A DNA stretch of 63,974 nucleotides, filler included, from Licmophora abbreviata (lineage: Eukaryota): NCBI GenBank assembly GCA_900291995.1. It is 12 parts of 12 records of this genome, joined end to end, with 100 filler letters (N's around TTAATTAATTAA, not from the genome) between each part and the next. Parts side by side here need not be neighbours in the genome. Positions count along the whole stretch, not along the records: positions 26,501 to 29,201 come from OLMU01003347.1; positions 29,302 to 30,327 come from OLMU01003348.1; 10 more parts are not named here. One strand, 5' to 3'. Below the pieces are notes generated by a model that was not told the DNA's origin, did no database searches, and was given only the letters and a program-made list of their open reading frames with translations. The translations under genes were made by a program, and so were the position numbers. Numbering within the stretch: position 1 is the first letter of the stretch; the number at the start of each line of letters is the position of its first letter. Of the stretch, positions 9,555 through 46,725 are shown one piece after another.

Positions 9555-9654
9555 NNNNNNNNNNNNNNNNNNNNNNNNNNNNNNNNNNNNNNNNNNNNTT
9601 AATTAATTAANNNNNNNNNNNNNNNNNNNNNNNNNNNNNNNNNNNNNNNNNNNN
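9555..9654. other. Artificial contig spacer N44-TTAATTAATTAA-N44. Same spacer at 11354, 13030, 17939, 26401, 29202, 30328, 41930, 57359, 59345 and 61495 (each 100 nt).
   Basis: Identical 100-nt construct with stops in all six frames occurs 11 times. Confidence 0.98.
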
Positions 9655-17938: not shown

Positions 17939-18301
17939 NNNNNNNNNNNNNNNNNNNNNNNNNNNNNNNNNNNNNNNNNNNNTTAATTAATTAANNNNNN
18001 NNNNNNNNNNNNNNNNNNNNNNNNNNNNNNNNNNNNNNGGCAATATACCGTCACACTCGAGTATTTCAACAATGGATGCGATGGTGAACCGTCAAGCCGG
18101 CGTCACCCTGAAAACGTCAAATGAGACGCTTTTGTCACCATCGCGCACCTCAAAACGCCCAAAGGGTCATTTCGTCATGTCGATTCTGGCATTGCAGAGA
18201 GACGACATCCACTTGCTCACATAATTGCTAAGCACGGTTCGCAGCCCTCGTAGGGAAACTCGCACTTTCCAGCCGCTCATGACTTCGACGACACTACAAT
18301 A

Positions 18302-23101: not shown

Positions 23102-25744
23102 TCAAACCCGGCACAATCTTTCCAACGTGGAGGATAACGAGTTCGTGATGTCTTGTTGGGGAAGATTGGAAGAAGAGGACGATTTTTGGCTGTTGGATAG
23201 AGACCCGTTATGAGCAGACCCCTGATTTGCTGCAAGCTTGCCCGCGCCGCTCTCACCGTACCACAGACCGCTTCGCAAGCAAAACCATAGCCACTGACGC
23301 CATATGGCATCTTGACACATGACATCAGGGCTCCCGACTACAACGAAGAGGTTCTCGGCTCGTGTCAGAGCCACATTTGTTCGCTTAGGCTGGTTGAAAA
23401 CACCCATGCGACGTTCCGCATCGTGTGATACAAACTTCGCCGTCGAGCGAGTAAGACTGAGAACGATAACGTCACGTTCCACGGCCTGATAGTCCTCTAT
23501 GGTTCCAACATCGACACCTCCCATGTTTCGTTCACGTAGCAGGGTACGAATCAAGACAACCTGGCCTCGAAAAGGGGCCATCACGCCAATCGATTGAGAT
23601 GAGACTCCCCGCTCGCTCACGAGTGCGGACACGATCTCAACGACTGCAACGGCTTCTTCTCGATTCGACCACGAATTACTTCCGGCCATAGATTCAATTG
23701 TCACCGATGCATCCTTCCCCACGACACCACGAAAGTGTATTGGCCAAGTCATCTGCTTCCTTGTCTCGTCAAGCAGACAGACAGGTTTTGAGCGATTCTC
23801 CACCATGCGTAGACATTCACACCAGTTCCCTACATCCCCCACGCCCTTGGCGACTTGAAGTTTATCGAAATAGAATAGAACACTAGGCATCATAAGAAAG
23901 CTCGGATGTCCCCGATAGTTCATAGTCAGAACGACACTCAATTGCTCTTGAAAAGAGTAGGAGATCAACTCTTCCATCGTTCTGAGGTCGGGTCCCAGCA
24001 TGTCGGTTGTTGCTTGTCCTGGCAAAACGTTCACAGACCGCAGGAGAAGTCTTTCCAGCAAGGACTGCCCCAAACCGGCTTGCGCAGCCTCCATCGAATA
24101 GACGTTGGGACTCAACTGGCGAGGATCACCTACAAGGGCTACCTCCACCTTTCGCGCCCCCGCCGTAGGATCGACCACGACGGACAAGGGAATAAGTGTT
24201 TCTGGTTCTTTCGCTTGCGCTGCCTCGTCAACAAACAGATGCGTAAAGTAAGGCTTATCCACCCCCTCTATGGAGACGGAGAGATCACATCGGTTCATCA
24301 TTTTATCGAAAAATGTACGCCAGCATCGGCGTCTCGCACGCAGCTGCTGATTGGTCAACCCAGCATGAAAGAAAAGAAACGCATCACTGCAGGTGCAAAC
24401 AATGACTCGAAGCTTCCACAACTCCTCGAGCGACGGAAAACAAAATCTACCATCTTCACCCGTCTGACGCGTGAACGGTAGGACTTGTACAGGCACTGTC
24501 GATACTGGACGATCAGCATCGTACAATCGAAACAACTGGGAAGGGGTTCCAAAGTGGTCCATGAGTCGTCGTGTAATGACATCCGCCGCGGTATGACTTG
24601 GAGTGCACACCAGGATGCGATGCTGATCATTTTCGGAAAGGACAAGTGCAATGGCCTCCAATAGAGCTTTTGTCTTTCCCGTACCGGCAGGGCCGGTCAA
24701 ACACATTGGCGGACGTACCGTATCTGTCGATGGATGTCGTGTTCGATGCAACACCATGTCAACAAAGGCGAGCTGCTTTTCATTTAAATCACTTGAACGG
24801 TCAGCTGTGTATAGCATAGATCTATGAGGCATTTTGGGAATAGCTGAGATCTTGGACGGAAACAAAAACTCTTCCACGAGTGCAGAAGGCAATGAATGGA
24901 GCCACTTCAAGGCGGTGATCATTCGGTCATGCAAAGTTGCCGACGGCACAAAACGAACGTTGAATGGTTTATTATTTCGATAACCTTTTTCAAGAAGAAC
25001 GTTCAAATCAAAGTTTAACCAGCTCGCATAGACCACATCCTTTCCCTTGCGTGCCCGGCGGTTCACACCCAGAACTCGAGCAGAGACCTCCACGGTTTGG
25101 TCTCCAAGCCATCCATGGTGGGGATCGTACATGACCACAGGGTGCATGGGCCGGACCAGAACATGATCATTCGGCTGAATCTGCGGTCGCACGTCTGCTA
25201 TTCCAGGAATGACCATGGATGCGTTCATCGCAGGTCCTGGCGGCGATGACACAGCTCGCTTGACCACTATATGAATGTTGTACTGGGCGTATCGCTCGTA
25301 AAGGTGTAGCAGCTCATGGCGTTCGCACCGCAGCAGCGTTTCGAACGTCCTCGCATAGTCAGCGAGATTGTCGATGGCATCTACTCGGGGGAGATTTTGT
25401 TTTCCAGAATCTCTTCTCTGTCGGAGGCTTTCTCGAAAGTCGCGTTCATCAAGCTCTCTAGGCCGTGGATGCGGTATCGAAGGTGGCGGCTGATGTCGCT
25501 CTCCTTCGCAGAAGCAACCAGGCACAGGCGGCACTAACGCACCGTAAATCTGTTTCAGATCGCTGTACAGGCTAGGACGAGCCCCTGCCGTCAAGAGCAT
25601 TGTCACCGGGGCCAAGAAGACGTTTCGAGACTCCTGCGGTGTATATGGGCTCGCCAGGACGCTACGTTCGTCGAGCGGCGCTGCCATAGAAGATGCCTGC
25701 GTGCCTGACGGCTTCCCCGACGTGACCTTGTCGCCCTTGCCCAT
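23102..25744 (-). CDS. MOV10/SDE3: SF1 UPF1-like RNA helicase, MOV10/SDE3/Armitage type
   Basis: LNEKQ; GPAGTGKT; ILVCTPSHTAAD; THLFVDEAAQAKEPE; GDPRQL; NYRGHP; SWSNREEA; GVMAPFRGQV; RTNVALTRA. The N-terminal PGIADVRP segment is typical of MOV10/SDE3. Confidence 0.85.
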   Translation of the reverse strand: MGKGDKVTSGKPSGTQASSMAAPLDERSVLASPYTPQESRNVFLAPVTMLLTAGARPSLYSDLKQIYGALVPPVPGCFCEGERHQPPPSIPHPRPRELDERDFRESLRQRRDSGKQNLPRVDAIDNLADYARTFETLLRCERHELLHLYERYAQYNIHIVVKRAVSSPPGPAMNASMVIPGIADVRPQIQPNDHVLVRPMHPVVMYDPHHGWLGDQTVEVSARVLGVNRRARKGKDVVYASWLNFDLNVLLEKGYRNNKPFNVRFVPSATLHDRMITALKWLHSLPSALVEEFLFPSKISAIPKMPHRSMLYTADRSSDLNEKQLAFVDMVLHRTRHPSTDTVRPPMCLTGPAGTGKTKALLEAIALVLSENDQHRILVCTPSHTAADVITRRLMDHFGTPSQLFRLYDADRPVSTVPVQVLPFTRQTGEDGRFCFPSLEELWKLRVIVCTCSDAFLFFHAGLTNQQLRARRRCWRTFFDKMMNRCDLSVSIEGVDKPYFTHLFVDEAAQAKEPETLIPLSVVVDPTAGARKVEVALVGDPRQLSPNVYSMEAAQAGLGQSLLERLLLRSVNVLPGQATTDMLGPDLRTMEELISYSFQEQLSVVLTMNYRGHPSFLMMPSVLFYFDKLQVAKGVGDVGNWCECLRMVENRSKPVCLLDETRKQMTWPIHFRGVVGKDASVTIESMAGSNSWSNREEAVAVVEIVSALVSERGVSSQSIGVMAPFRGQVVLIRTLLRERNMGGVDVGTIEDYQAVERDVIVLSLTRSTAKFVSHDAERRMGVFNQPKRTNVALTRAENLFVVVGSPDVMCQDAIWRQWLWFCLRSGLWYGESGAGKLAANQGSAHNGSLSNSQKSSSSSNLPQQDITNSLSSTLERLCRV

Positions 25745-26502
25745 CGCTTTTTATAAACTAGACTACTAAGAACGCGATCAACGCACTTTTGCAGACTATG
25801 ATGGAGACAACGGGGTACCGGCGCGAGTCCCGCTCCTGGCTCACCATGCATGCAGAGATCGGAATCTCACATCTCACTGGACTCGAGAAAGTCCCCGAGG
25901 TCAGGCAATCCTCTCCCGCCGGTCATTTACTTAACGTTGAAAGTGCTGCGACAATGACCGGGACCGATAAGTGTGATGCCGATCAGCGATTCGAAAATTG
26001 AGATTCGCGAGTGCAAAGGGCCTTTCGTCGGCTCTCATTCTTCATGAGAACTGGAAAACAGCTCGATCACACGGTAGTTTAATCTGTCCCACCTCTCCCA
26101 CCCTCTGGCTCTGCCGACCAGCTTGGGCTAGGGACGAGGCATTCACCAGCGCTAGTAAAGCCTAGTTTCCCACTCCCTCAAGACTAGACTCATTTAGCTC
26201 CGGCGACGGCTACTCGACCAACCCGAGTGCCGTCGCGCCGTCTGTGCGCCTGACCGTCGGGACGAACGAGAAAAGCGGTGCCAACCGCGGAAAAAACAAA
26301 AACATCAATTCGAGCTTTCCGAGCTCTCCTGTGAGCTAGCCCTCTCGACGGCGATGACACCCATTCACCTTGCCACTATGATACTCTCTTGCCACATCCT
26401 NNNNNNNNNNNNNNNNNNNNNNNNNNNNNNNNNNNNNNNNNNNNTTAATTAATTAANNNNNNNNNNNNNNNNNNNNNNNNNNNNNNNNNNNNNNNNNNNN
26501 TT

Positions 26503-28588
26503 CCTCCGCATGCCGGGGGCCCACCGATCCTCCCAGAGGGACAGGGGGTCCTAGGCGGGGTTGCAGTGGTACCGCCTCCTCCGGTAGCGGCGCGAACGTA
26601 TCAGGAGTTCTTTCTGTCTGAACAGAATGACCCACATGCGAGCGACTACGCCGAAGTAGAGAGAGACTTTCACGCCCCTGTACATGGACCGTCCCGTTAC
26701 AACCCGCAGGCATTGGCGGCCCGGGTGATGGCAGCATCGGCCCACGATGTACCACTTGCAATGATTCAGCATTGCAAGGCACCGGACGCCGAAGACGTTG
26801 GAGTAATCCAAGTCTTCCATCGCGTCACGCGTTTTCCCATCACAGTGGTGGGCCCACCAGAGCCGTGGGATGGAGGCACCTATGCTATCGTTGGGGACAT
26901 CGTTCAGCAACAGTTCGTTCTCGCGCCGTTCCCTGAGGGTAACAGTAATCTCGCTGCACCCGGGACCTTCGTGATGACGGATGACGAGATGCTCGCGAAC
27001 ATAGGAGTCGCTCCCGACGGATTGATCCCATTCGGCGAAGGAGCCGAGCTGGTGGAAGTGCGGACGCGGTTGACGACATTTGTGCCGTTTAAGTACGTTC
27101 CCCTGTTACTGCCTGCGGCCCTACCTCCCAAGGCCGCCTTCCAGCGAGTGGCTGCTGTTGGCAGCGCGGGCCAATGATCAAGTCATCGCCTGCCGACCGC
27201 TGCTGGATTTCCTGAAGGTGGCGGCGACCGCCACCGAAGCACACCCACTCGACTCAGCGGTGTCCAGGTTCTGGCCCACCCTGCCGCAGCCGCCGAACGC
27301 AGCTCTCATCCGTTTCTTCGAACGAAAAGTGCGGCATGATTTACCAGGCTGGAAACAGCGTGATGGGCCATCCGTAGCAGCGCTACAGCCGGTCATCTCA
27401 GCGATAGATGGCCTAACCGCCGAGCAGCGTCAGCAACGCCTAGATACGAAGGCTAGGCAACAGGCCACGGACAGAGGCAAGACGCCATCGCAGTTTTACG
27501 GTGTGCATGGGATCACGAAACTCATGCGCGTGTGTCAAGTCGCGCAGGAGTCCGCGCTCCCACCGCTCTGGTCGCAGCTAGCCCAAGCACCAAAGACAGG
27601 ACGGCTCACCACAGTTCAGAATGTGGTTGACGAGCAGCGGGCAGCCCTAGGTGTATACTTTGAGGTTCCGGTATCGGTATCGTTGGTGTCGAAGCTCACT
27701 AGTTTGAGCTTCGCAGGGGCTAACCCGGAGGACATCACCTTAGGGATACAGCCGTTTCTCTTTGGCCTGCCGACACCACAGCAAGCTGAGCAAGTAGCCC
27801 ATCGAGCCGCGCTATACCGCCACATCCATGGAGGCGAGGGGGTGCCGTCACTGGCGGACACCATGATCTTGGAAGCACCCGACGACGTCCGCGCGGCCAC
27901 CACGCTACAGGCTACTCAGCATTCGATCGACGCCACTCGCGCGGTGCTATCGGCCATGCTGGGCATGGCACATCCAATCGTGTCATACCTCACCAGTACC
28001 CGGCAAGCACTCGACGTGTGTGCTAGCGAGCTCGCCGTTCAGGCCCAGCAGCAGCCCACACTCCCACTCGACATACAGCGTTACATCCAAGTTGAGATGG
28101 CGCATTGGTTCAAAATGCAAGAGCGGGCGCACATGCCGGTGCCATTTATGGCGAAGCCGGTAGTGTACGAGGCGGCTAAGGGCGCACACTTCTGGCGTTA
28201 CAGTCTGCCGGCAGCTGTGCAGCCACTTCCCGCACCAGCGCCAGCTCCACCCACCGCACCTGCACCAACTCCAGCGCAGTCGTCGGGCTCCACACCACCC
28301 CCGGCCAGTCCAGCCCAAAACATCGTTCGAAACATGCAGCTTGACCCCCGGTTCCGTGACGTTAAAGCCCGCCCCAATTGCCGCTCCCGCGCTATCCGTA
28401 GGCGTTGCCAAGAGCAAGGCATCGCTCTCCCCAAGGACGCGCGCGGGAAACTGCGTTGTCTGTCCTATCACATCGTCGGACAGTGCAACGAGCGGTGCGG
28501 AAATGCCGTCGACCACCACAACGACCAACTTGAAGCAGACCAGGTCGCTTTGTTGGAGTGGTGCGAGGCAAACTGGCGTCCTGAATAG
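26503..28588 (+). CDS. Gag-like ORF1 of the YR retrotransposon; open from the contig start; apparent frameshift near 27160
   Basis: Frames 26566..27177 and 27080..28588 read as one protein (..AFQRVAA / AARANDQVIACRPLLDFL). Pro-rich linker, then RCLSYHIVGQCNERCGNAVDH. Confidence 0.72.
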
Positions 28589-30327
28589 GACGCCGGCAAT
28601 GGCCGAGTGCTCGGGGGCACTCGCCAAGAGCCATTCACCTTACCGTCGCTTATGGCGACGGTACCGCCACCCCCGCAGGCGGAGAGTCTTAGTAGTAGTA
28701 CCAATAAGCCGCAACGGTCGCGCCCCCTTAAACGACGTGCCGCTGCCATTGCTAGCTTACACCATAACGATAAACTAGGTAAGAGTATACACTCAGACTT
28801 ACAACTTCTACGCCGCCACGGTCTCACTACGCTCCTACGCTTTCGACAGGGAGCTGGTGACTGGGGCGACCTACAGACCGTGCGCCATCACCCGGCGTAC
28901 CGGCTGCTGAGCACCTACAAAGCTCGTGGCGTCCCTATCACCCTCGCCGACGCTCCCTGGTCGTCTGACGAGAAGACATCGAGCATCTCCCGCGGGCCCC
29001 ACAAGTCCGCCTATGACCATCTAGAGTTCCTACGAGACGACATGGCCGACATGGTCGCTAAAGGTTATTGGGTAGTATTGCCGTTCGACGCCGTGCAGCA
29101 GACCACGAGTCTGCGCATTAGTCCCATCGGCGTCGTGCCTCAAGCAGCCCGGCGTTCACGCCCTATCGTCGACTATACGTACTCCGGTATCAACGACATG
29201 ANNNNNNNNNNNNNNNNNNNNNNNNNNNNNNNNNNNNNNNNNNNNTTAATTAATTAANNNNNNNNNNNNNNNNNNNNNNNNNNNNNNNNNNNNNNNNNNN
29301 NATCCTCCAAGAAGCTCTCCGCCACGTCCTCCCGGACTCCCGCCTCCGAATCACCGAGGATGTCCACTCCACCTTGGACCACTTCCGACAGCTCCAAGCG
29401 GATTTGCACGCGCGACCCACGCGTATCGCTGAGCTTGTCCCCCTCCAGCCCACTGTCCACGGATGCCATGACGCGGCGGCCACCGGCGCAGGTGGCATCC
29501 TTCTACCGACGCCAACCGCCGTCCCCCGCGCTACCTCCCTGCGCACCACCACCGGCCGTCGCCGTCTCCATCACACTCCCGGGCCCATCGTCTGGCGCAT
29601 GCCGTTTCCACCTTCCATTGCGGCCAACCTAGCCAGCTTCGAGAACCCCCACGGTGACATCACCAACACCGACCTCGAGCTCGTCGGCAGCCTCCTTCAA
29701 TCCGCTGCCGCCTCCGACTGCTTCGACTTGCGTGAAAGGACCCACCTCCAGCGTACCGACAACCTCGGTACCATGTACTGGCAACGTAAGGGCTCTACCA
29801 CTACGCTCAAGCCCGCCTCCCGGCTTTTGCGCTACCAGGCGGCCCATCAACGTTTCCACCGACATGTCACGGTCCATGACTACATCCCAGGACCGGAGAA
29901 CCAACCTGCTGACGATGCCTCTCGCCTTCAGCACTTGTCAAACTCACAGTTTTTGCGCCATTTTGACACTCACTACCCGCAGACTCTCTCCTGGCGACTT
30001 TGGACACCGCCACCCGAGCTGCGTTCCTGGCTGATCTCCGCGCTGCAGACCACGCCGTCAGCTTCGGCGTTACCGCTGCCCGCGCCTCCGCCGCCGATAC
30101 CCACTGGGAGCTTTGGTCCGACTTCTGCGCCGAGCTGGCCGTCGACCCATTACTCCAAGGCGTCGCCGACAAGATCACCCTGCTCCAAGTCTATCTCCAC
30201 CGCTACCGCACTGGCATCCTCGCTCCCCGCGGCCGTGCCGTCCGAGCACGCACCGCTGAGGATGCCTTACGGTCGGTTGGTCAAACGTTCTCTGCGATGG
30301 GGTCCGCGGACCCGCGTCTCACTACCC
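28589..30327 (+). CDS. Pol: reverse transcriptase (N-terminal part 28589..29201, catalytic core in gap) and RNase H (29302 onward)
   Basis: RGPHKSA..HLEFLRDDMADMVAKGYWVVLPF..LRISPIGVVPQ..RPIVDYTYSGIN. After the gap: LQEALRH..DLHARPTRIAEL..GCHDAAATGAGG..ITNTDLEL..TDN..ADDASR. Confidence 0.85.
30000..30327 (+). CDS. Tyrosine recombinase, N-terminal core-binding region; overlaps pol in another frame; catalytic part lost in gap
   Basis: GVTAARASAADTHWELWSDFCAEL.VDP.L..LLQVYLHRYRTG..VRARTAEDALRSVGQTFSAMGSADPR matches the 'W..F..FC ... TI..YL..V ... G..DP' pattern of DIRS/Ngaro YR. The R-H-R-Y catalytic residues are not visible. Confidence 0.7.
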
Positions 30328-30822
30328 NNNNNNNNNNNNNNNNNNNNNNNNNNNNNNNNNNNNNNNNNNNNTTAATTAATTAANNNNNNNNNNNNNNNNN
30401 NNNNNNNNNNNNNNNNNNNNNNNNNNNGGTGCCAACCGCATCCTCCTTGTGCGCGACTGTCGGGGATGGCGCGCTTTGTGTTAACAAGGGAAGATCTGTT
30501 CGGCGCGCTGTCATGTCCTGACAGAGTGAGACCATAAGTAATTTTCCGTTCCTATTTAAGGTCGTACCAATTTCCAAGAAGCATTAAAATGCTTTATGAC
30601 TGTTTATAGGATTTATCATCTCGGTTGGTCCACACACAAATATTGCGTCACATTCGCTTCATCGACGGCATGGGTTCACGTTTCGTCTTGCACCCATCGA
30701 ATCACACACGAGGGACGGCGTCTCATGCTTGTGGATACATCATTCCTAACATGCGGTCCTGCCATACCGATGAATTCTAGGTTGCTACCACATGAGACGA
30801 GGGGACAAAGAAAAGAAAAAGG

Positions 30823-33138
30823 ATGAGATTTCGGTGCACGGTCCTGCTTGTTGTTCTGTGTTGTATGTGTGTCGACAAGGTGGATGGAGGTGACGACGAG
30901 AAGGAGCGCCTGGGACCACATCCACTCATTCGGGGTCAACAGCGACAGCTAAATTTTGTCAAGCGAAGGTCAGGACCGACACAGCAGACGTCGACTATTC
31001 ATCAAGTACCAGATGCTCCATCACCGCCTCCAGCAGTCACGCAGACCCGAACCAATAACCAAGAGGAAGCACCAACACCACCAACAACAACAACGCAGCA
31101 AGATACAGATGCACACGACGCAATTGTTCACAATGGAGAGACTTTCACCAGGGGGAGACCAGCACCACGCGATGGCAATGGCGTCGTCCAAGTGTCGTCA
31201 ATCATGATGGGGAGAACATCTCCTCAACGGGGCTGGCATGGCAAAGGGGGCAAGGGGAAACACTCTAGGGGGAAAAAGAGCACATTTGGCAAAGGCGGGG
31301 CATATCACAAACCCCACCCTCGACCCTCGAAACCAGTCGCTCCTCCGGCGCAACCACTGACACCGGCGCCACAGACGCTGACTCCTACGGTGTCACCCGC
31401 AGCAATTGTTCCCGAACCAACTGCTATGCCAAGTCAGGGACCAAGTATGGTGCAAAGCTCAGTTCCAACCCAGTCTCCACTTCTGGTGGATACACCTCTA
31501 CCTTCCTTTGTCCCCAGTGCAGGTCCGAGCTCTGCACCTGTCCAAGGAACCACGCTGCCGAGCGGCGCGCCTACTACTAGTACTGCTCCGAGTACACAGC
31601 CGAGTGATGCCCCTAGCGCAACTCCTATCGAAGGATCTTTGCAGCCAAGTGTTGTTCCATCTATTGCGCCTTCGAATCTTCCAAGCATTCTACCGTCGAT
31701 GGTCCCATCCGCGTTTCCTTCTACATCATCCGCACCCACAGCTTCTGAGCCACCCTCACAGTCGCCATCACTGTCATTCGGACCGACCGCACTTGTGCCT
31801 GACGAGCTACAGAACTGTACCTCTGCCGATGAATGTCCTGAAGGGGCGTGTGGTTACGAGATCTTTGATGAGAACAGCGCTATTGTTTGTTGCGATTCGA
31901 ATGTAACTGTTACTGTCGGAAGCGATACAGAAACACAGTGGTGTACCGGTCAGGCTATTGGTTCCGGCTGTGGAAAGAATGCCATGTGCGTCAGCGATGT
32001 CTGTGTACAAAAGGTTTGTCAAGATGGGCTTCAGGACAGCGGGGAAGCGTGTGACTCGAACAATGACTGCATCAATGGGGCGTGCGGTCATGAACTCTTC
32101 GACGCAAGTAGCGATAGGATCTGTTGTCCGAACAACGAAACTGAAGCATCGAGTGGTATAGACTATTGTACAGGGCAGAAAGCGGGGGACCCCTGTGAAA
32201 CCGACACCATTTGTGCGAATCAAGAGTGCGTCGATGGTCTTTGCGAGGGCCGGCTATTGGCTATTGGTGAATCATGCGACAGCACTGCTGTGGACGATTG
32301 TGCCAATGGCGCTTGCGGTCGTGACACGTTTGAAGATGATAGCGTGTTTATTTGCTGTCCCAGCAATGAGACTGTTCAGGTCGGGAACTTCAATCCCACC
32401 CAGTGGTGCACCGGTCAGCAGGGCGGAGCCCCGTGCGGCTCTCCCGAAATGTGTCAAAGTCAGGTCTGCCTTGCTGGGATCTGTACTCCTGGATCTGCAC
32501 CTATCAGTACTGACCCTTCTCCTCCGACCATGGCTCCAGTCCGCCGAACACTGCCCCCCGCCACCTTTCCTCCAATTGGGCTTCCAGATCCTACGGACCA
32601 ACCTACTACACAGTCGTGTCCTCCTGACGATGGCAGTGCCTGCGATAGTGGAGTCTGTGGTCTCGTGGAGTTCACAGCTTCCAATTGGATTTGCTGCGCC
32701 AGTGGTGAGACTCTGGAGCTGAGCGATGGCCTTTCGTACTGCACCGAGCTTGAGGAAAACAAATTCTGCGATAACTCGAACGAGATTTGTGCCGGTGATC
32801 TTCTGTGTATTCTGGGACTCTGCACAGACATTCGACAGGGTGACGGACAAAGCTGTACTCCAGGCGATGACAGTGATTGCACGAGTGGCGCCTGCGGTGT
32901 GGAGGAGTTTGGGTCGTCCGACTGGAGGTGCTGTTCGAGCGGGACCACTCTCGTGCTCCGCAACGGCCTGCCGCACTGCACTGAGGTACCAGAGGGTGGA
33001 AGCTGTGACACTTCCGACCAGATTTGCGCAAGTCAGTCGTGTGTGGATGGGATCTGTCAACCAGCGATGAGTCAAGTGCGTTCGTTCCCTTGGGGAATAG
33101 AGAACTTGAACGATATCTTCGATCACCACAGAATATAG
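30823..33138 (+). CDS. Secreted protein with K/G-rich motif, P/S/T-rich stalk and five 10-Cys acidic repeats
   Basis: Signal peptide; LIRGQQRQL; GKGGKGKHSRGKK; five units of C..C..GACG...F...CC...T...CT...C...C...C..G.C. Confidence 0.87.
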   Translation: MRFRCTVLLVVLCCMCVDKVDGGDDEKERLGPHPLIRGQQRQLNFVKRRSGPTQQTSTIHQVPDAPSPPPAVTQTRTNNQEEAPTPPTTTTQQDTDAHDAIVHNGETFTRGRPAPRDGNGVVQVSSIMMGRTSPQRGWHGKGGKGKHSRGKKSTFGKGGAYHKPHPRPSKPVAPPAQPLTPAPQTLTPTVSPAAIVPEPTAMPSQGPSMVQSSVPTQSPLLVDTPLPSFVPSAGPSSAPVQGTTLPSGAPTTSTAPSTQPSDAPSATPIEGSLQPSVVPSIAPSNLPSILPSMVPSAFPSTSSAPTASEPPSQSPSLSFGPTALVPDELQNCTSADECPEGACGYEIFDENSAIVCCDSNVTVTVGSDTETQWCTGQAIGSGCGKNAMCVSDVCVQKVCQDGLQDSGEACDSNNDCINGACGHELFDASSDRICCPNNETEASSGIDYCTGQKAGDPCETDTICANQECVDGLCEGRLLAIGESCDSTAVDDCANGACGRDTFEDDSVFICCPSNETVQVGNFNPTQWCTGQQGGAPCGSPEMCQSQVCLAGICTPGSAPISTDPSPPTMAPVRRTLPPATFPPIGLPDPTDQPTTQSCPPDDGSACDSGVCGLVEFTASNWICCASGETLELSDGLSYCTELEENKFCDNSNEICAGDLLCILGLCTDIRQGDGQSCTPGDDSDCTSGACGVEEFGSSDWRCCSSGTTLVLRNGLPHCTEVPEGGSCDTSDQICASQSCVDGICQPAMSQVRSFPWGIENLNDIFDHHRI

Positions 33139-33276
33139 TTGCTGCGGCCATGTACGGATTAGCATAACTGTTCACTTCTAGAGTAAGCTACGCGACAAGA
33201 ACCGAGGCAGAATATAGCCCGTTCCGAAGCCTGGGCGTACTTTTCCGGAGACCAGCTCCAGTTTTTATTTTGTTCT

Positions 33277-33450
33277 CTATTTGATCTTGTGTTCGGTAAA
33301 TAAGACATGCTTCCGAACCACAGGGTCATATTTGACAAAGGCCAGTTTCTGAGGAGTCTTCGAGACGTTTTTCCGTGTCGTGTAAAAAAATCCCGTCCCG
33401 GCCGCACTGAGCAATTTGATAGGAATCGTTTTGCCCTTGCCTCGGGCCAT
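33277..33450 (-). CDS. rpmG: Ribosomal protein bL33 (nuclear-encoded, probably mitochondrial)
   Basis: [51 protein letters not shown]. Confidence 0.93.
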
Positions 33451-33996
33451 GCATACTATCGAGGCGTGCATACTTGTAACAAAGATCAAATAGATATAAT
33501 ATAAGATGAAACGCACGAGGAAAGCATCAGCGACGGCACACAAGGTCGTCCCATGGTGACTGTGGTGCGTGTGTGGCGACGAGAGGAGCCGCCGCTGTGC
33601 GCTTCGCTGAGTCCGTACGTCGCCCCCACCCACGAGGATACCCGGATGTATCCCGTTGGGCGCCTTGAGAAGGACAAAATGATTCATCCCTTCCACAAAG
33701 GCAGATTGAAGATGCGGATAGCCTACCTCAGCATGGGCAACGCAACTACGAAAGTCTGTTCAAGAGTCAATAAATAGCAATACTGCGTTGAAGTCGAGAT
33801 ATCATGACGGTGCATGTTGGCGTGAAACTGGCTTCGAACTCAAGGGTGATGAGACACGAACTCTGACGTCATGATTGCTTCTTTCAATCTGTGGCCTTTG
33901 ACACCCCCACCGAGAGAACCACGAAGAGCACATGAACTTGCATCGCGATCTCGCTGTTTGTTGCCTGTAACGAAAGAAGTGCTCCATCCGCTTTTA

Positions 33997-34019
33997 CAAT
34001 AGAATAGAATAGAATAGAA
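33997..34019 (+). repeat. (AATAG)n pentanucleotide microsatellite just upstream of an ATG
   Basis: aatagaatagaatagaatagaa. Confidence 0.75.
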
Positions 34020-34028
34020 AAGACCATC

Positions 34029-34594
34029 ATGCTGAGTCGCGTCGTCCGGTTGCCCCCTGCTGTCACGATCCTTCGTGCGTCGACGACGGCGCGGATCGTA
34101 CCGACCTTCGCTCGCGCAGCCGCTGCCCGGACCTACGGCAGCATTACGGTTCGTTAAATCAATCGCGCCTTGCTTTGTCGCCGCCATGAAGATTATCTCT
34201 CATTCTCTCTATTTGTTCTTTGCTCTCACAGTACTCTGGTGGACAAGCTTCTGAAGGCCAGGGTGGATTCTACGGCTCGGGCGGTGCCCGCGTGCTCAAG
34301 ACGACTCAAGAGCATCGTCCTGAACTTCTGGCCATTGCCGAAGATGTCGAGACGATATCCAAAGCCATGTTGGAACTGACGGCTCTTGAAGCGGAACTTG
34401 AAGATCTTCGCACAAAAGACTCCGATGTCAGTGCCACGATTGAACTCCGTTCGGCCATTAAGAAACTCATGACGGCTCCGGAACTGACACAGTGTTTGAA
34501 TCGTCTCGAAGTGAAAGGCGAGCCCGTGTGGGGATTGAGCTCGTCAGAGCGTGAACTCATTATCCATGCACGTGAAAAGGCAAATGAGTGTTGA
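34029..34594 (+). CDS. Hypothetical small protein with mitochondrial-type presequence; intron 34149..34231
   Basis: Exon 1 MLSRVVRLPPAVTILRAS..RTYGSIT is Arg-rich with no acidic residues. It splices in phase 0 to YSGGQASEGQGGFYGSGGAR; a coiled-coil region follows. Confidence 0.78.
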
Positions 34595-35200
34595 GAGATT
34601 GATTTGGTATGAGAGGGAACATATAGATAATACTTCACAAGCAGAGTCATGGATGCTGCCTACCTGAAGGAACCGATGGAGAGAACAGAGTACGTACAGA
34701 GACTATCTTGGAGCGCCGAAAAGAATAATGCGCCCCTAAAAGAGCAGTTAACACGAGTAGGCGACCAACATGTCTCTACTAGGAGTTTGTCGTCCTTGTA
34801 ACGCGTGATCATTGTGTTCCGAGTCGAAGATCGCGAGCATGCGACATCGGTGCGGGGCATGAGCTCATCCCCACTCTCAACTCTACCAGCCGATTGGCAA
34901 CGGTATAGATCCAGAGTACTGTATGATGATAACAACACTGCAAGGCCTCAGGTTAGACTTCCTGGTGAGGTGCCTGATGGACTACACTGATGAAGTGTGA
35001 AGTCCATCCGACAAAAAAATGAGGCGCGGAGAGCTTTTCCGGGTGACCGTCTAAACTTGCGTTGCGCGACGACTTCAATTTGTCACATCTTTCCCACTGA
35101 CTTGGCAATGAACCATTCTGCGGGCTCATCGTCAAGGAAACTTCCGACAGCGTTCGTTCTCTCCCATTCCTGCTCGTCACCTGTAGTATCGAAAACAAAG

Positions 35201-36903
35201 ATGGCGAGTTTCAAGTCCAAAGTGCTTTCGATTCTTGCGATAGCGATGCTCGCCGGCGTGACACTCGGGTTTGCGCCGGCGTCGTACAAGAACACCGTCC
35301 GCCCGCAGTCACAAGCCCCTTTGAAATCGGCTGTTGCCGATATAAATGAAGTCAAGACAGACGTGGTACCTAATGCGGACCAGGATACAGTGACTCGGCC
35401 AGGAGAAATTGAGAATGCCTATTTTCAGTGTGACGAATCAGTACAATTTTGGCGGAACTTTGAGTCGCGAGGAAATCAAGGCAATGTCGACCGCATTCGA
35501 GACCTGCTGTCGCGAAACGCGCCCTCTACCACCGCGAGCCACAATGGTATGAGAGCAGCGTACTGGTCCTCGCAGATGCTTCGGACGTCATACTTCGTCG
35601 CGACTGCTGCTCTTGGATCGATTGGCTCCGATTTACACGAGCGATTCATTGCCAACCGTGGTGACGATGCGAGTCGGATGGCTGGAGAATCCTTTATGGA
35701 TATTAACGGAGGAACCATGACAACCAATCTTCTCGAGTCGGACGTCCCTTCACGCCTCGTGTTTGAAGCTCTCAAGTGCTATGAGCAGGACTGGAAGTTT
35801 GTGGAATCGGGCCTTCTGAACTTTCCTTGGGATGGGATCGCCACAGCCAGTCGTGACAGCGACCAGATTCGTCTTCAGCTGGACCACAAGCAGTCGAACC
35901 CTCTCTTTGCATTGTCCGAGACGGGACGAGTCATTCGGGAGTCGATTGGGATCTTTGGTCGACGCAACAGATTTGAGGGCCAGCCCAGCGGACAGGTCTG
36001 GATGAAACAGCCGCAGTCAAATGGATCAAAGTCGATTCGCTACCCAGACTACTACCTGAACGACTTTCATTACCAAACCGATGGATGGCTCTCTTCAACC
36101 TCTGCTAATGTGTACGAAGCTAGCACAGAAACCCTCTTCTTGGGACGTCAAGATGCCATGCAACGACAGACATTACTCCCGTTGCTAAAGCACTTTGAGT
36201 CCTCACCGCCCATGAAAATTCTGGAGGTAGCATGCGGCACTGGTCGGTTTGCCACATTTGTTCGCGATAATTTCCCTAAAGCTGACATGGTCCTTTCCGA
36301 CCTTTCTCCATTTTACCTGGAAAAGGCGCGAGAGAACGACAAGTACTGGAGGACTTATCGAGGAGAGAAGGCAGTGCAAGAAAAGATGAATGTGGATGGT
36401 AGCGTGCCGAGCGCTCCCAAGCCTGCCATGTTTGTGCAGGCCAACGCCGAATCTCTGCCCTTCCCAGACGAGTCATTTGATGCTGTTACTTGTGTTTATC
36501 TTTTCCACGAGCTGCCATTGAAGGCACAAGCCAATGCAGTCCGAGAAATGGCTCGTGTGTTGAAACCGGGAGGAATGGTGGTGTTCACTGACTCGATCCA
36601 ACTTGGCGACAGACCTGCCCTTGACAAGGGCATGGGGAACTTCGGTCGTCTCAACGAACCTCACTACAAAGGTACGAAAAGCACACTTATGGACTTTGTT
36701 GAACAGGATGTGTTTGTCGTAGCAGTATGGCTCACATGCGTCGTGTAACTTTGCTTACAGACTTCATGCAGACCCCGTTGGCACCCCTCTTCGAACGCCA
36801 CGGGCTGACCTGTTCGGAAAAGTACGTTGCGTCGAGTACAAAGACACTGTCCTTTGTGAAACGAGGCAAATCAAAGGAACAAACCCACGATCTTGCTACC
36901 TAA
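35201..36903 (+). CDS. Plastid-targeted class I SAM-dependent methyltransferase (UbiE/type 11-like); intron 36672..36760
   Basis: MASFKSKVLSILAIAMLAGVTLG|FAP; YPDYYLNDFHYQTDGW; ILEVACGTG; DLSPFYL; AESLPFPDESFDAV; RVLKPGG. The last exon ends STKTLSFVK..TAA. Confidence 0.9.
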
Positions 36904-36979
36904 CGGAAAGATAATCGTCAAATAAATAAGCTACTGGTATTGATTCTCCTAGCAGCTGCTTAAGTTGGCTATCCTTGCT

Positions 36980-38899
36980 CTAGGCAGCCGCGAATTGGCT
37001 CGGATCGACTTCAAGCAAAAGTTTCTTACTCTGCTTGGTGAGAGTCGCACCCCCACCGAACGCAATGGCACCTTCACCCTTGACACCAGGAGGATTCTGG
37101 GGTTCATGCTTGGCCGCTTCCTCAACAACATGAGGCTGAACCTCCTTGATCGCTAGCTCTGGCATGTCGAGCGCCCGCCGTGCCACCACCTCAGCCGCTA
37201 GCTTTCCTCCCAAAACGGCCCCCTCCATGCTGCCCAAGAACTTCTGTGATGTCCAGTCTCCCGCCATGGTGAAGTGCGGAATCGGTGTTGTCTGACTAGG
37301 TCGGTACTTATTTCGGCCTACGCAAGGGGACAGGTAGATGAAAGTGAGCAACAGTTCCAGCGGGAATATACCTTCTCTAGTCTAGAACCGACACAGCTTA
37401 CCTGGAATGGCAGCATACACACTACGGGGAACCTTGACGACGACAAACTTTCGCAAACGTGCTTGTCCCTCAGGTCCCTGGTCCTTGGTCGCAGGCCATT
37501 TGTCGTCCGCTGCAATCTCCGTCGGGAATAGACGGGCCAGTTCTCCCATTGTGGCATCAATAATCTCCTCATCAGTCTTGGAAATCCAGTTCACATTTCC
37601 ACCCGCAAGTGGACTACACGGTGCAAAGACCAATTCCAACATACTTGCATCCGTGTCGTAGTATTCCTTGCAGGTGACACTCATATCAGCATAGACACTC
37701 AACAGCGACGATCGCGAAAAACACAAGTGATCGACGGCCTTCAACTTACGATCAAACCACATGTGTAGATTGATTACGGGAATGCCCTGGAGTTCATCAA
37801 ACTGACGAAAGTATGGCATGTTCTGCCACTTCTTGGGGACCATACGCTTGACGATATCCACCGGCATGGCCGAGATATATTCATCAGCCTCAACCTTCTC
37901 TCCCGAACGCATCAACAAATGCTTGACACTTCCATCATCATTGGTAACAATCTCCTTGACAGGTGACTTCATAATCACCTTACCACCGCGACCTTCAATG
38001 TGCTGCTTCATCGGTTCGCAGAGACGATCCGGTTGGTTGCCATCCAGAAAAGCCATTTGCAGTCCATTGCTTTCATTCAAGAAACGATTCATGGCTGTCA
38101 AAACTACCGTCATGCTAAGCTTCTCAGGATCAATGAAATCAAGCGCCTTGGCCATGGCAATGAAGACTTCTTCGTTGATGCGTTCCGGCATGCCGTACTT
38201 TCGCATAAACTCAGTGACAGAAAGCTCATCTTGAGCATCAATGAAGGGCTGTCCCTCAATCAGCATAGGTAAGAGTGGAGGTGCAGTCTGCAGCTTTTCA
38301 GGCAGAGTCAACATTTTCTGATTCGACAAGATAGCAAGTGCAAAATTGAAGGGAGCGGGAATACCAGGAATGAAGTCAAAGGTAGTAAACTCGCCAGGTA
38401 GTTCTTGCATGGCAAAAATCATCTGATGAATCTTCCATTGCAGTCGATCGTGAATATCGAGCTCGGAAAACAGATTCATCATGTTGGGGTAGGCACCAAA
38501 GAAGATGTGGAGACCAGTCTCAATCCAATCTCCGTCTTCGTCTTGCCATGCACTGACTTTGCCTCCCAGCACATCACGGGCTTCGTAGACGGTGGGAAGG
38601 TGTCCAGCATCCGACAGATACTTGGCACAGGCTAGTCCCGAGAGCCCTCCGCCGATAATTGCAACCTTCTTCCGTTGCGAGTCGCTCGATGTCTTTAGTG
38701 TCGTACTAAAACTTTGACTCAAGGCCTCACCGACGCGGTAGTTCTCCGTATCTTCCACGTTGGGCTTGGGATAGTCGCGCATGGTCAAAATGTTGTTTCG
38801 GGAAGCAGTTCGCGGAGCGCTCATCAGACGCGTGAAAGGGGCAAAGGCCTGCACATGGCTCAACAGGAGCACCGCCAGATAGAACGTAGACTTCCTCAT
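36980..38899 (-). CDS. PDS: Phytoene desaturase (plant/cyanobacterial CrtP type); intron 37318..37401
   Basis: HVQA|FAP presequence; [66 protein letters not shown]. Confidence 0.96.
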
Positions 38900-39340
38900 G
38901 ATGCGTATCCAACAACCAGAATGATCCCTACCGAAGACTGGAGTCAGAGAGCAACAGAATGAACTGATGGCTGCTGATGGCGTGGTCGAAAACTGACACG
39001 GAAAATAGAGCCCATCACAAATCTTTGGAAGAACGTCACTGCTGAGTCTTCAACTTCCGGGTTTCTGAAAACTCAGCGCAAGTGGATTCACGTCCAATAG
39101 ATTGCACATACAATTCATCTCCAAAAACCTAGGGTTGAAGGGACAACTTTTATGTAGAGCAGAGCTCGAGTTTGTCATCATCGCGGCGAAATAGAGTCTT
39201 GATGGAGTCTCTAATGCTCTCTCGTCGTCCTCGTCGTTATTACCTACACTGTTTCCACCACATTTTCTTCGATGATGAGCAGTCAGCCTCAGTTTCTAAC
39301 CACATTAAAGACTTTGGGTAGAGGTACCTGTACAGATTCC

Positions 39341-40200
39341 ATGTTTCGACGGATCGCGTTTACTATACTGCTGACTTTCTTGTTTCAAAATGAGTCGTCG
39401 GACGCGTTCACGCCGCCGGTATTCAGAGTGATGCCATCGGCCACGTTCGAACGTCGCCATTGTGCAATAGTCACCTGTAGCATGTCTGCACCCGGCCCAT
39501 GTTCCTCATCACTTGAAGCTAGTGCTGCCCGAGAGGAAGACTCGCCAAGAACAAGAAGATCGTTTCTTCGACGTACCTGTACCTCTGCAACTGCCAGCGC
39601 TCTTCTTATCTTGACTCCAAGTTCAAGAGCAGTAGCAGGAGGATCAAGCGATGAATCCTTCGAGCGCACCACCAAGGACTTTAGCTACTCCCTAACTCCT
39701 CCACATGGATTCGAGCAAACGAAAAAGCCTCTAAAAACGCATTTGGACGAAGTCAACTTTGTTTCCTCTAAAGTTGGATCCTACCAATTCGGAATCACGG
39801 TAGATCCAGTGCGGATTCAGTCCTTGAAAGATGTACGTCTTTGAAACTTATACTGCCTATTGAAGAAAGGTGAACGGCCCCCTCTCTCACCTCTTCTTCT
39901 CTCCGCCTTTCTCCACAGTTTGGTACTCCAGAGCAAGTCGCCGCACGGGTAGTGACTGCCGAGGTGAATCGTGACGGTGTCTTTGACGTGACGCTGTTGA
40001 AGGATCCAGTTGTTTCGTCGGATGGCGCCTATCAGCTCGAGTATCTGAGCCGTGGAAAGCGCGGCGACAAACACTTTGTGGCAAAGTTTTACATTATCAA
40101 CTTCAAACTGTACGTTCTGACCGCCCAAGTGAAGCAAGAGTTCTTCGATCAGTATCAGGCCGAGCTCGTGCGGTGTGTCGAGTCGTTTCGCTTGTTGTAA
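39341..40200 (+). CDS. PsbP-domain (PPD-like) thylakoid lumen protein; intron 39833..39918
   Basis: Signal ..SSDA|FTP; Tat-like TRRSFL..SRAVA; GITVDPVRIQSLKD|FGTPEQVAARVVTAEVNRDG; YQLEY; KLYVLTAQ. Confidence 0.85.
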
Positions 40201-40329
40201 TTGCGTACGTAGACGAACAAAGTAAAGGGGCAGCACAGCTAGGATGCGCTTATGTTGTTTTACAGGCATGCGTGCTATTTCTAGTCTTCGCTCTAGTCTT
40301 CGCGTTTGTACCCTCAGTCTGAAACGAGC

Positions 40330-41778
40330 TCATTCTATGGTGTCCACAATGCAGCACTGGCTACTGGGTAATCTTCCATTCGGTGTAATGACAGTGACCG
40401 TGTCTGGCTCGTCGTCGCCTCCGTGGATAACTTCAAGGACCTGGGGAGGTGCTCCCATGACACCTTTGGACGCCCCAACATCGACCCGCCATGCTTTCCC
40501 CTTCAGCGCAGCATTGATATGAAACTGCGGCGTGTGACCCATCACAAGGCGATCGGCATCGAGTTGTGAGAGTAAGTCGTCAATCATGCCTTGTGCTTTG
40601 GGATTCCGCGGCGGCGCGTCGTTGGGTTGCGAAAAATCCCGCATCCACACGGGCGACTCGCTCCCGATGCCGCCGCCGAGGCATTCTGGCATCTGCTCTG
40701 CGGCCACCTTGGCGCGACCCTGTGCGGACGCGATGATGCCCTCCACCGATTCGTAGTTGCCCAAATTATTGTTCTCGCCATGATGGCTGGCCAGAATCCA
40801 CTCGCGCGCTTGTTTATTCATTCCTTCGAGACCGCCGTACTTCTCTAAATGATCCGTAGTCAAGCCCGCATGTACACATACAGTCCGTCCCACTTGAACA
40901 GCGACTTGGCCGTACTGCAGTGTACTTTGACTAAGTATCCCACCCGGTTCCATGGCGGCCCATCTCGCAGGCTGATTCCCTGCAAACTGAAGCCTCCATC
41001 GGTCACTGCCCAGCACCCTATCAAGCTCGGCACCTACGACACTTTCATACTCATCATTTCCACCCTCCAAAGCATATTGAAACAGACCTGCTGCGTTGAG
41101 AGATTCATGGTTTCCAAACAACAGGTGCACGGCACCACCACGGTCCTTTGCCTTGCGAGACAGCGTCGCCAGTACCTGCAAACATGCCAGCTCGTTAGCA
41201 CCACGATCTAAAATATCTCCCAGCGAAATCAAAATAGTGTCTCCACCGGTCCATTCTACATTCTCAATGTCATCCAGAGGAGTGTTGATGACTCCTGCCA
41301 GTTGCAGGAATCCTTGCAATGCAGGAATATCGCCATGGACGTCTCCCATGACGACCACCCGCTGGTTCTTGGGCAGGTCAGTGTATCGATCTGGTGGAAT
41401 CGTAGGATCCCACTGGTATTTCTGAAGGAAATCTTCGCTTACCAGTGACCTGAGCGATGCTGTGGCAGCCGAATCGGACGCGTCTCCTGCCGACGTAGTA
41501 CTATACGTGGCATTGACCGGTTCGAACGGTGTGGTCCCGTACAAGGACGACCCACCGCTACGGCGGCCGTACACGATAGGGCATGTATTGGGTGGTCTGA
41601 TGAGAGCATTCAAGGATGATGCGTGCTTTCTTCTCGCCAAGACGGAAAGCGAAGCATTCACTCGACGATTCAGCGTCGTGCCAAAGGCTGCCGTCGCGCG
41701 CCGTGGCAGCAGCATTGCCACGCCGACCACTACGACAATTCCAGAAAAATAGACGATTCGATTCGTCGTACCGGGCAT
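40330..41778 (-). CDS. SLP1: Shewanella-like protein phosphatase (SLP/Shelph, PPP metallophosphatase), probably plastid-targeted
   Basis: GDVHGD, GDILDRG, GNHE, HAG, GHTPQ, RVDVG; N-terminal hydrophobic segment plus ATAA|FG. Confidence 0.9.
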   Translation of the reverse strand: MPGTTNRIVYFSGIVVVVGVAMLLPRRATAAFGTTLNRRVNASLSVLARRKHASSLNALIRPPNTCPIVYGRRSGGSSLYGTTPFEPVNATYSTTSAGDASDSAATASLRSLVSEDFLQKYQWDPTIPPDRYTDLPKNQRVVVMGDVHGDIPALQGFLQLAGVINTPLDDIENVEWTGGDTILISLGDILDRGANELACLQVLATLSRKAKDRGGAVHLLFGNHESLNAAGLFQYALEGGNDEYESVVGAELDRVLGSDRWRLQFAGNQPARWAAMEPGGILSQSTLQYGQVAVQVGRTVCVHAGLTTDHLEKYGGLEGMNKQAREWILASHHGENNNLGNYESVEGIIASAQGRAKVAAEQMPECLGGGIGSESPVWMRDFSQPNDAPPRNPKAQGMIDDLLSQLDADRLVMGHTPQFHINAALKGKAWRVDVGASKGVMGAPPQVLEVIHGGDDEPDTVTVITPNGRLPSSQCCIVDTIE

Positions 41779-42281
41779 CCGCACGTTCTTGATCCTCCTG
41801 CCTTTCTTGCAGCGATAGGCGGGAACGTCGATCTATACACAAGATAGGAATTTCAGCAGGAGTGTCAAGTTTGATATGGTGCACCGTCGATGAAATCTCA
41901 TGGGCACTGAAAGAGTAGTGATTTTTGAANNNNNNNNNNNNNNNNNNNNNNNNNNNNNNNNNNNNNNNNNNNNTTAATTAATTAANNNNNNNNNNNNNNN
42001 NNNNNNNNNNNNNNNNNNNNNNNNNNNNNATATGGTGCACCGTCGATGAAATCTCATGGGCACTGAAAGAGTAGTGATTTTTGAATTTGGAGCTTCGAAA
42101 CTTAAAAAAAATTATCTCGTACGACCTCACGGATCGCCACGTGGAAGCCGAAAACAAACCATGACCCTATGACATTATGACATTTTTTCTTGGGAGTGAA
42201 AAGACTCTTATTCGAAACCTACACACACTGCAAGACCATGACGGCGATCGTAGCACTTGGCTGCCTGATCCATCCCTTAAG

Positions 42282-46433: not shown

Positions 46434-46725
46434 GACCACAGATCGAAATAAGAAAGGAGTTCCTTTCGAGGAAGGAAAGGAGTTTTGAGACGCGAGAAAT
46501 AAGATAGCAACGGTGCCGTGCGAGCAATGCCATCATGGGGAAACACACACAGAAGCGACGTCGGCGACAAAAAAGTTCGATCGAAAATGGCGCGACCGTT
46601 TTTGTGTAGCGCGTAGCTCGCGAAACGTCTGAGCTTCAACCGTCTCGCGCGCACACTGACACGAACGGTCCGTCCGACGTCCAACCACAAAACACACATT
46701 GTCGACACAAAACAGCACCGCGACC

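Follow-up and report, generated by a model that had tools for sequence, protein, structure and literature searches.

The locus studied here raises the question of whether a single in-frame UAG codon, located between a gag-like open reading frame (ORF) and the beginning of a pol ORF in a retrotransposon fragment from the assembly of Licmophora abbreviata, is a true terminator or a site of programmed stop-codon readthrough. The stretch of DNA analyzed (63,974 nucleotides from assembly GCA_900291995.1, hereafter the window) is composed of 12 separate contigs joined by 11 identical linkers, each consisting of 44 N, TTAATTAATTAA and 44 N; because the contigs were joined artificially, adjacency across a linker is no evidence of linkage. 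The junction sits in a contig of 2701 nucleotides (26501-29201) that contains gag, a name given here by position, and the start of pol. A previous inspection of the DNA alone (the sequence-only reading) had proposed that a tyrosine-recombinase retrotransposon makes a Gag-Pol fusion at this UAG. The stop, the frame, the linker and the stem-loop of its relatives support this proposal for the family, and programmed readthrough at the gag stop to yield Gag-Pol is, at the family level, the best reading of the comparative sequence evidence, with a probability of about 0.75.

In the window copy, the main part of the gag-like ORF lies at 27074-28585 on the plus strand (504 codons, with a C-terminal C-X8-C-X3-C-X5-H motif). 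Its frame ends, as had been described, in ..TGG CGT CCT GAA TAG, and the TAG at 28586-28588 (plus strand, context GAA UAG GAC) is the proposed readthrough codon. The pol ORF starts in the gag frame and occupies 28589-29200 (plus strand), where a variable linker is followed by a conserved domain that precedes the reverse transcriptase (RT) and is cut by the contig end; this segment is 34-53% identical to the 80 metagenome loci described below and gives a match to the pol profile. The frame behind the stop is indeed open up to 29200, the final full codon of the contig, but the claim that it continues into the RT region does not stand, since it reaches only the pre-RT N-terminal part of pol, and the RT core of the window copy falls in an assembly gap. 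The stop reported by the ORF lister at 29255-29257 lies inside an artificial linker, which contains stops in all six frames, so that ORFs seem to end within it.

To identify relatives, the window frame read through the TAG was used as a protein query in a full HMMER search, which provided 1571 protein relatives at E<=0.001. Among the 150 matches listed, gag-type stretches end at or before query residue 508, pol-type stretches begin at or after residue 508, and none crosses the junction. When 29 gag relatives of 23-58% identity were aligned (alignment A1), all 29 proteins were found to end 6-15 residues past a near-invariant tryptophan, W496, and residues C462, C471, C475 and H481 were invariant. 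To collect relatives at the DNA level, an alignment of the pol N-terminus was scanned against public metagenome contigs, since a 30-sequence gag alignment had no stretch conserved enough for such a scan; 171 of the 231 pattern matches could be confirmed, and the best 80 of these were retained. The gag and pol profiles were then run on the stop-to-stop ORFs of 81 sequences, i.e. the 80 metagenome loci and the window contig. A gag match was present upstream of pol in 68 of the 81 sequences, and in all 68 cases gag and pol were in the same frame, separated by exactly one stop in 65 sequences and by two stops in three (L021, L031 and L071). The 13 sequences lacking a gag match comprise eight with too little upstream DNA, two that belong to another lineage (L020 and L067) and three that differ otherwise (L056, L058 and L080).

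These data bear directly on the possibility that the TAG arose as a private nonsense mutation in a copy that is dead, gag and pol having been fused in one ORF in its ancestor, with a sense codon at this position. The window copy does look damaged, with a frameshift in gag near 27150 and cuts at the contig ends, and in the other lineage (L020, L067, P0119 and P0157) an N-terminal domain and pol are found in one stop-free ORF. That lineage, however, is not matched by this gag profile, the 150 matches listed include no fused form of the gag family, and a search for gag-pol proteins of more than 1242 residues returned a single match, P0157, to pol only. Since the stop is found at the same place in 68/68 loci and in 29/29 aligned gag proteins, it is not a private mutation, and the 23-58% protein identity argues against the loci being copies of one dead lineage; the probability of this explanation is practically negligible. 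At this site no relative carries a sense codon, nor are gag and pol in different frames in any of the 68 loci, two outcomes that the sequence-only reading had named as contrary to its proposal.

The choice of stop codon and the sequence that follows it were analyzed in those 65 junctions at which the gag match extends to the C-terminus, which were collapsed at 90% identity into 49 clusters. The gag stop is TGA in 33 clusters and TAG in 16, and TAA is absent (0/49), i.e. only the two leaky kinds of stop are used, whereas in the same loci pol is terminated by TAA (12), TGA (9) and TAG (8). If gag used the stop mix of pol, the chance of finding no TAA in 49 clusters would be, by simple arithmetic, about 4e-12. 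The base after TAG is G in 16/16 clusters, and at the same position after UGA there are 12 clusters with A, 9 with G, 7 with T and 5 with C. The linker between the stop and the conserved pol domain adds up, over the 46 one-stop clusters, to 2775 codons and contains no in-frame stop, compared with 101 and 127 stops in the other two frames, and 27 of these 46 clusters have no in-frame ATG in the linker. Selenocysteine insertion or a reassigned code was considered as well and was rejected, given that both TGA and TAG occur at the site, with exactly one such codon per ORF.

Independent translation of pol, with the stop as a true terminator and initiation at the ATG at 28652 or at another start through reinitiation, internal entry, or a subgenomic or spliced RNA, would agree with the fact that gene callers start many pol relatives at an ATG 40-110 residues before the conserved domain, with the location of the window ATG 21 codons past the stop, and with the presence of an in-frame linker ATG in 19/46 clusters. 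Nevertheless, independent initiation gives no reason for the common frame (68/68), for a linker devoid of stops (0/2775 codons) or for the avoidance of TAA (0/49). The ATG at 28652, pointed out before as a potential pol start, is not conserved, no ATG precedes the conserved domain in 27/46 clusters, and in the window this codon (28652-28654), the only ATG nearby, forms the apex of a second local hairpin (28641-28663, plus strand, 10 bp, free energy (dG) -15.3). This alternative is therefore regarded as unlikely.

A hairpin starting about 12 nucleotides after the UAG had been reported in the window, and its 7-bp stem (28604-28610 paired with 28617-28623), together with the UGG/CCA extension, is recovered in the minimum free energy (MFE) fold. 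The element is larger than that, and it begins 6 nucleotides, rather than about 12, past the UAG: the 7-bp stem is the upper part of an unbranched stem-loop of 38 nucleotides and 14 bp at 28595-28632 (plus strand, dG -19.7), the candidate stimulator of readthrough, which is separated from the stop by a spacer of 6 nucleotides (28589-28594, plus strand). The stem-loop is built from a basal helix GGC:GCC, an internal loop AA/AAG and then 4 + 7 bp. All structure predictions refer to nested structures.

A stem-loop at this fixed distance is conserved among the relatives, and its basal pairs covary, conservation with compensatory changes being a check that the sequence-only reading had proposed for its stem. 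When the first base of the stop is numbered +1, a GGC triplet occupies positions +10 to +12, with G in 47/49, G in 48/49 and C in 44/49 clusters (T in 4). In a plain MFE fold of the 120 nucleotides after the stop these three positions pair with a downstream GCC in 40/49 clusters, and a GGU triplet (L007, L060 and L076) is paired with ACC. When the three closing pairs were imposed, a single unbranched stem-loop starting at +10 was obtained in 46/49 clusters, with medians of 38 nucleotides, 14 bp and a dG of -17.5, and lengths ranging from 25 to 110 nucleotides. The basal helix has 3 or 4 bp in 42/46 of these clusters and is followed by an internal loop with 2-3 unpaired bases on the 3' side in 36/46 and 0-2 on the 5' side in 45/46, above which there is a second helix and a variable top. 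The stems of different subfamilies have no common sequence (GGAG:CUCU, GGGGU:ACCCC and GAGAC:GUCUC, and UGGC:GCCA in the window).

Several comparisons support this structure. Windows of 60 nucleotides starting at +10 have a median z-score of -1.58, compared with 0.00 in 196 in-frame control windows (Mann-Whitney p 4e-11). Two covariance models, R2 and R3, were grown from 5 seed sequences and run on both strands of 281 kb; 22 of the 23 matches of R2 were junctions and the remaining one was the antisense of a junction, and 24 of the 25 matches of R3 were junctions, the remaining one having an E value of 6.7. At nine basal pairs in 21 junction sequences, 95.5% of the cells are paired, compared with 82.5% after shuffling (0/500 shuffles as high) and with 43-57% when the partners are slid, and changes on both sides were observed at 6/9 of these pairs. 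A test that requires no fold was applied to the 23 clusters that contain GGC and a downstream GCCACC by pairing the base after GGC with the base before the first GCCACC: these flanking bases are Watson-Crick partners in 16/23 clusters and form a wobble pair in 2, with 6.0 expected and 0/20000 permutations as high, and the pairs are of all four types (U:A 7, G:C 5, A:U 3 and C:G 1).

Two further alternatives concern what happens around the stop. Removal of the stop from the RNA, whether a short intron is spliced out, the RNA is edited or the polymerase slips, would likewise explain the conserved in-frame layout, and nothing direct speaks in its favor. The bases between the stop and GGC include neither a conserved GT..AG nor any other conserved position, +4 to +9 being variable, and the occurrence of both TGA and TAG is not easily covered by a single editing change. 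Moreover, a fixed distance of 6 nucleotides to a stem-loop is a hallmark of ribosomal recoding signals (Firth 2011, PMC3159437), and removal at the RNA level is thus extremely unlikely. The stem-loop might instead serve packaging, dimerization or the priming of reverse transcription, any readthrough being due to the stop context alone; retroelement RNAs carry many structured signals, and the energy controls for this stem-loop are weak. However, the exact 6-nucleotide distance is maintained across lineages whose stems are unlike in sequence and vary from 25 to 110 nucleotides, which points to a link with a ribosome located at the stop, and there is a precedent in human SEPN1, in which a spacer of 6 nucleotides precedes a readthrough-stimulating stem of 16 bp with a 5-nucleotide loop (PMC3159437). 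A role of the stem-loop unrelated to the stop is accordingly considered very unlikely.

Some observations nonetheless weigh against programmed readthrough or against a stem-loop that stimulates it. The loci are related by descent, so that 68/68 does not amount to 68 independent events. The fold of the window alone is unremarkable, with a z-score of -2.05 for 81 nucleotides (6/200 shuffles as good) and of -1.85 for 55 nucleotides (12/200). In-frame GGC codons outside the junctions pair downstream in 275/530 cases, compared with 40/49 at the junctions; a score for the best closed structure fails to separate the junctions from 353 other T(GA|AG)N6GGY sites (p 0.81), and the best unbranched hairpin sets them only modestly apart (median -15.1 vs -11.4, p 3.5e-4). 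Energy alone is thus a poor discriminator in the G+C-rich DNA studied here. The covariation count in 21 sequences makes use of a structure-fitted alignment, which favors the structure, and some of the conservation may lie at the protein level, given that GGC and GCC correspond to a glycine codon and to part of an X-Pro pair. The covariance models miss the window's own site and about half of the clusters. Finally, a potential pseudoknot follows the gag UGA of Tca2, a long terminal repeat (LTR) retrotransposon of Candida albicans, and it is unclear how that UGA is bypassed (PMC2194720), so that a stop followed by a structure is no proof of readthrough.

The window site is a member of a 'GGCAA' subclass, whose internal loop is different and which also includes L002, L009, L011, L014, L041, L045 and L075. 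RNAalifold, applied to an ungapped alignment of 13 hairpins of 38 nucleotides, recovered only 7 pairs, as the register of the inner helices varies, and no Rfam match was found in 28300-28900. The comparative evidence for the stem-loop is stronger than the evidence based on energy.

Taken together, these comparisons establish a conserved stop, a common frame for gag and pol, an open and ATG-poor linker, and a conserved, covarying structure, and from them we infer that readthrough occurs, with some efficiency, and that the stem-loop stimulates it. Most ribosomes would terminate at the gag UGA or UAG and release Gag, and a minority would decode the stop as a sense codon by means of a near-cognate tRNA and continue in frame to produce a Gag-Pol fusion. 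The stem-loop located 6 nucleotides past the stop would act as the stimulator: with the stop in the A site, position +10, at the base of the stem, is predicted to lie near the mRNA entrance of the ribosome, as judged from Firth 2011 (PMC3159437) and PMC13517186.

The tyrosine recombinase that the sequence-only reading ascribed to the element is present in its relatives, and no complete recombinase ORF was found in the window, either by Pfam in 84 window ORFs or with a recombinase profile on 30428-41929. The order gag-like ORF, pol and recombinase ORF was observed in 14/14 long loci listed, with a gag-like ORF of about 690-800 amino acids, the stop, a pol ORF of about 820-970 and a third ORF (ORF3) of about 390-460. 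ORF3 has the conserved blocks LLRPGEY, ARSLRA.GA and GRW.SD.M.RYL, and its AlphaFold model (mean predicted local distance difference test (pLDDT) score 75.5) is best matched by Cre recombinase (E 7e-5, template modeling (TM) score 0.55-0.71), followed by integron, Xer, Tn1549 and lambda integrases. The Pfam Phage_integrase family matched 4/9 ORF3 members (best E 0.026), and a PDB sequence profile search with ORF3 gave 0 matches. According to the model, then, the relatives encode a Cre-fold tyrosine recombinase, an identity that comes from them and not from the window. The recombinase ORF (e.g. L002 4687-5853, L024 5910-7151, L044 5069-6250 and L065 5986-7167) overlaps the end of pol by 148-640 nucleotides in the -1 frame in 36/36 loci with an overlap. 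Recombinase homology begins 2-18 codons from the opening of the ORF in most loci, and in many of them the first methionine lies more than 100 codons inside, so that a start codon is mostly missing. As a -1 slippery heptamer for this ORF, the sole recurrent in-phase site was CCCTTTC, present in 5/22 loci and located about 180 nucleotides into the ORF, so that no conserved slippery signal emerged.

Four of four pol ORFs match RVT_1 below the Pfam cut-off (21-25 bits vs 29.6, E 2e-5 to 2e-4). Pol may include an RNase H as well, judging from known motifs, although no RNase H family match was found in the pol ORFs. Neither a protease nor an integrase domain was detected in the element, and there was no match to a methyltransferase family, a missing match being weak evidence. 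The model of gag is mostly helical (pLDDT 84) and has no Foldseek match at E<=0.001, its best VIA hit (Z 6.0) being to designed helical repeats. The retroviral CCHC zinc knuckle has the form C-X2-C-X4-H-X4-C, and the invariant Cys/His motif of this gag, C-X8-C-X3-C-X5-H, is not of that kind. Split direct repeats were identified in L024 (A1 819-1018, B1 7748-7824, A2 7954-8168 and B2 8197-8273), one of the three loci examined, the other two being cut by contig ends. The family is thus Ngaro-like, of the DIRS order, its membership being defined by architecture, and the best explanation of the window contig is that it represents a fragment of a tyrosine-recombinase retrotransposon with an Ngaro-like layout. 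Among the members of known phylum in the protein-atlas clusters nearest to the gag-like protein there are one diatom and two oomycetes, a weak lead to a stramenopile affinity.

Two side observations on the relatives are recorded here. L065 and L066 are located on one contig of 11852 nucleotides as two head-to-tail copies of the element with gag starts about 5.9 kb apart, which could be a tandem or a nested arrangement. In the sister pol lineage (L020 3-3548 and L067 699-4190; P0114, P0119 and P0157) an N-terminal domain and pol form one stop-free ORF; this domain (..ITWTWP..QFCE.AN..LSP.A..F.P..) is unrelated to the gag described above, and the lineage is a sister group with a different expression strategy.

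Regarding the state of the window copy, the N-terminal part of the gag-like ORF is found in another frame at 26503-27174 (plus strand, contig frame 3) and is truncated by the contig start. It represents the N-terminal third of gag, matching residues 62-260 of P0004, the closest gag relative among the matches listed (58% identity), and model positions 5-204 of the gag profile; the gag ORF has no early ATG. Comparison of the three-frame translation with P0004 (..AFTRVLGMAQANNQV..) places the switch of frame near 27150, within ..AFQRV / LLAARANDQV.., where one extra base is apparent after ..CAG CGA GTG (27140-27175, plus strand). This frameshift distinguishes the window copy from all relatives and reflects either a genuine defect or an error of assembly. 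At 27150, one diverged metagenome contig loses its match. Because of the gag frameshift and the cut by the contig end, the window copy is probably defective or misassembled; it bears all the proposed readthrough signals. Reads from 4 DNA runs of one study (5-9% of words shared) gave contigs of about 150 nucleotides, one of which is identical to 28547-28699, and three diverged read contigs over the stop region differ from the window at 8, 21 and 20 positions.

The separate contig 29302-30327 (plus strand) carries a later portion of a pol of this kind; it is a contig which matches residues 500-582 and 670-749 of P0045 and residues 442-514 of P0029, and on which the recombinase profile also scores. 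This contig may belong to the same copy as 26501-29201 across an assembly gap, and no second copy of the element was found within the window. The linkers occupy positions 9555-9654, 11354-11453, 13030-13129, 17939-18038, 26401-26500, 29202-29301, 30328-30427, 41930-42029, 57359-57458, 59345-59444 and 61495-61594, and the remaining contigs of the window carry ordinary eukaryotic genes. An 882-codon ORF with AAA_11/AAA_12 helicase domains (23102-25750, minus strand) is present on the contig that precedes the element; as that contig is separate, the ORF cannot be linked to the element. A ribosomal L7/L12 C-terminal domain is present in three ORFs (46660-47337, plus strand; 51238-52035, minus strand; 52373-53113, plus strand) that fall within 6.5 kb of one contig. 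In a 780-codon ORF at 30796-33138 (plus strand), which gave no Pfam match, a stretch rich in Pro, Ser and Thr precedes a Cys-rich module (..CDS..DC.SGACG...F......CC..) that is repeated about seven times.

Gag-Pol readthrough is known in gammaretroviruses and has been proposed for some LTR elements. To our knowledge, tyrosine-recombinase retrotransposons have no protease and have been described solely with separate or overlapping ORFs. A full-text literature search found no readthrough linked to DIRS, Ngaro or PAT elements, Goodwin & Poulter 2004 and Poulter & Butler 2015, which may bear on priority, lying outside its coverage, and the available excerpts of PMC3266345, PMC6681497, PMC8547959, PMC12477816, PMC8226300 and PMC12440569 make no mention of a gag-pol readthrough layout. 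A gag-pol layout with a leaky stop thus seems new for this class of elements. More broadly, it is possible, though doubtful, that an old and widespread protist family of Ngaro-like elements tunes its Gag:Gag-Pol ratio by UGA/UAG readthrough with a GGC:GCC stem-loop, which would make this the first recoding signal of the DIRS order and a new class of short-spacer stimulators, possibly accompanied by a second recoding event. Since the recombinase ORF is overlapping, in the -1 frame and mostly without a start codon, such a second event may give Gag, Gag-Pol and Gag-Pol-recombinase from one RNA.

Protein expression and its balance are poorly known in tyrosine-recombinase retrotransposons, and a leaky stop followed by a stem-loop would provide the DIRS order with a concrete mechanism for a Gag-Pol fusion. 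The signal occurs in approximately 49 divergent natural versions, with stem lengths of 25-110 nucleotides and a fixed 6-nucleotide spacer, which constitute a ready mutational series for readthrough stimulated by a 3' structure. Gene callers split these elements at the stop, and knowledge of the signal could lead to correct gene models in protist genomes and metagenomes.

The closest retroviral parallel is murine leukemia virus (MuLV), in which a single in-frame UAG-G (type III context) and a required 3' structure provide Gag-Pol at a low ratio (PMC13517186, PMC3159437). As in MuLV, the window element has one in-frame stop between gag and pol, a UAG followed by G, and an RNA structure a few bases downstream. 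In MuLV, however, the structure is a compact H-type pseudoknot at +12 after an 8-nucleotide spacer (PMC13517186, PMC3159437), whereas here it is an unbranched stem-loop at +10 after a spacer of 6 nucleotides. Also unlike MuLV, the family uses UGA in two thirds of the clusters and has a tyrosine recombinase and no detected protease or integrase domain. With Ngaro elements (PMC3266345, PMC8547959), which occur abundantly in stramenopiles, Ectocarpus and Cafeteria among them (PMC12477816, PMC8547959), it has in common the order of gag-like, RT-bearing and recombinase ORFs, the split direct repeats (in L024) and the lack of a methyltransferase match. Ngaro ORFs usually do not overlap (PMC3266345), in contrast to the recombinase ORF described here, which overlaps pol. 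The family resembles Tca2 in having gag and pol split by a UGA with a potential 3' RNA structure, and differs from it in that Tca2 is an LTR element with an integrase (PMC2194720).

Readthrough-stimulating structures are generally found 6-12 nucleotides past the stop (Firth 2011, PMC3159437; PMC13517186), and extended 3' stem-loop signals occur in alphaviruses, coltiviruses, several plant virus genera and two genes of Drosophila, kelch and headcase (PMC3159437). The UGA contexts observed here are mostly not UGA-CGG or UGA-CUA, unlike those of the extended 3' stem-loop readthrough signals. In the viruses, 'loops' of 100-270 nucleotides are usually enclosed by the stems (PMC3159437), whereas the structure described here is a compact hairpin, with a median of 38 nucleotides and an asymmetric internal loop over GGC:GCC. 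In agreement with the signals of Firth 2011 (PMC3159437), it consists of a UGA or UAG followed, within the same range of 6-12 nucleotides, by a conserved stem with compensatory changes.

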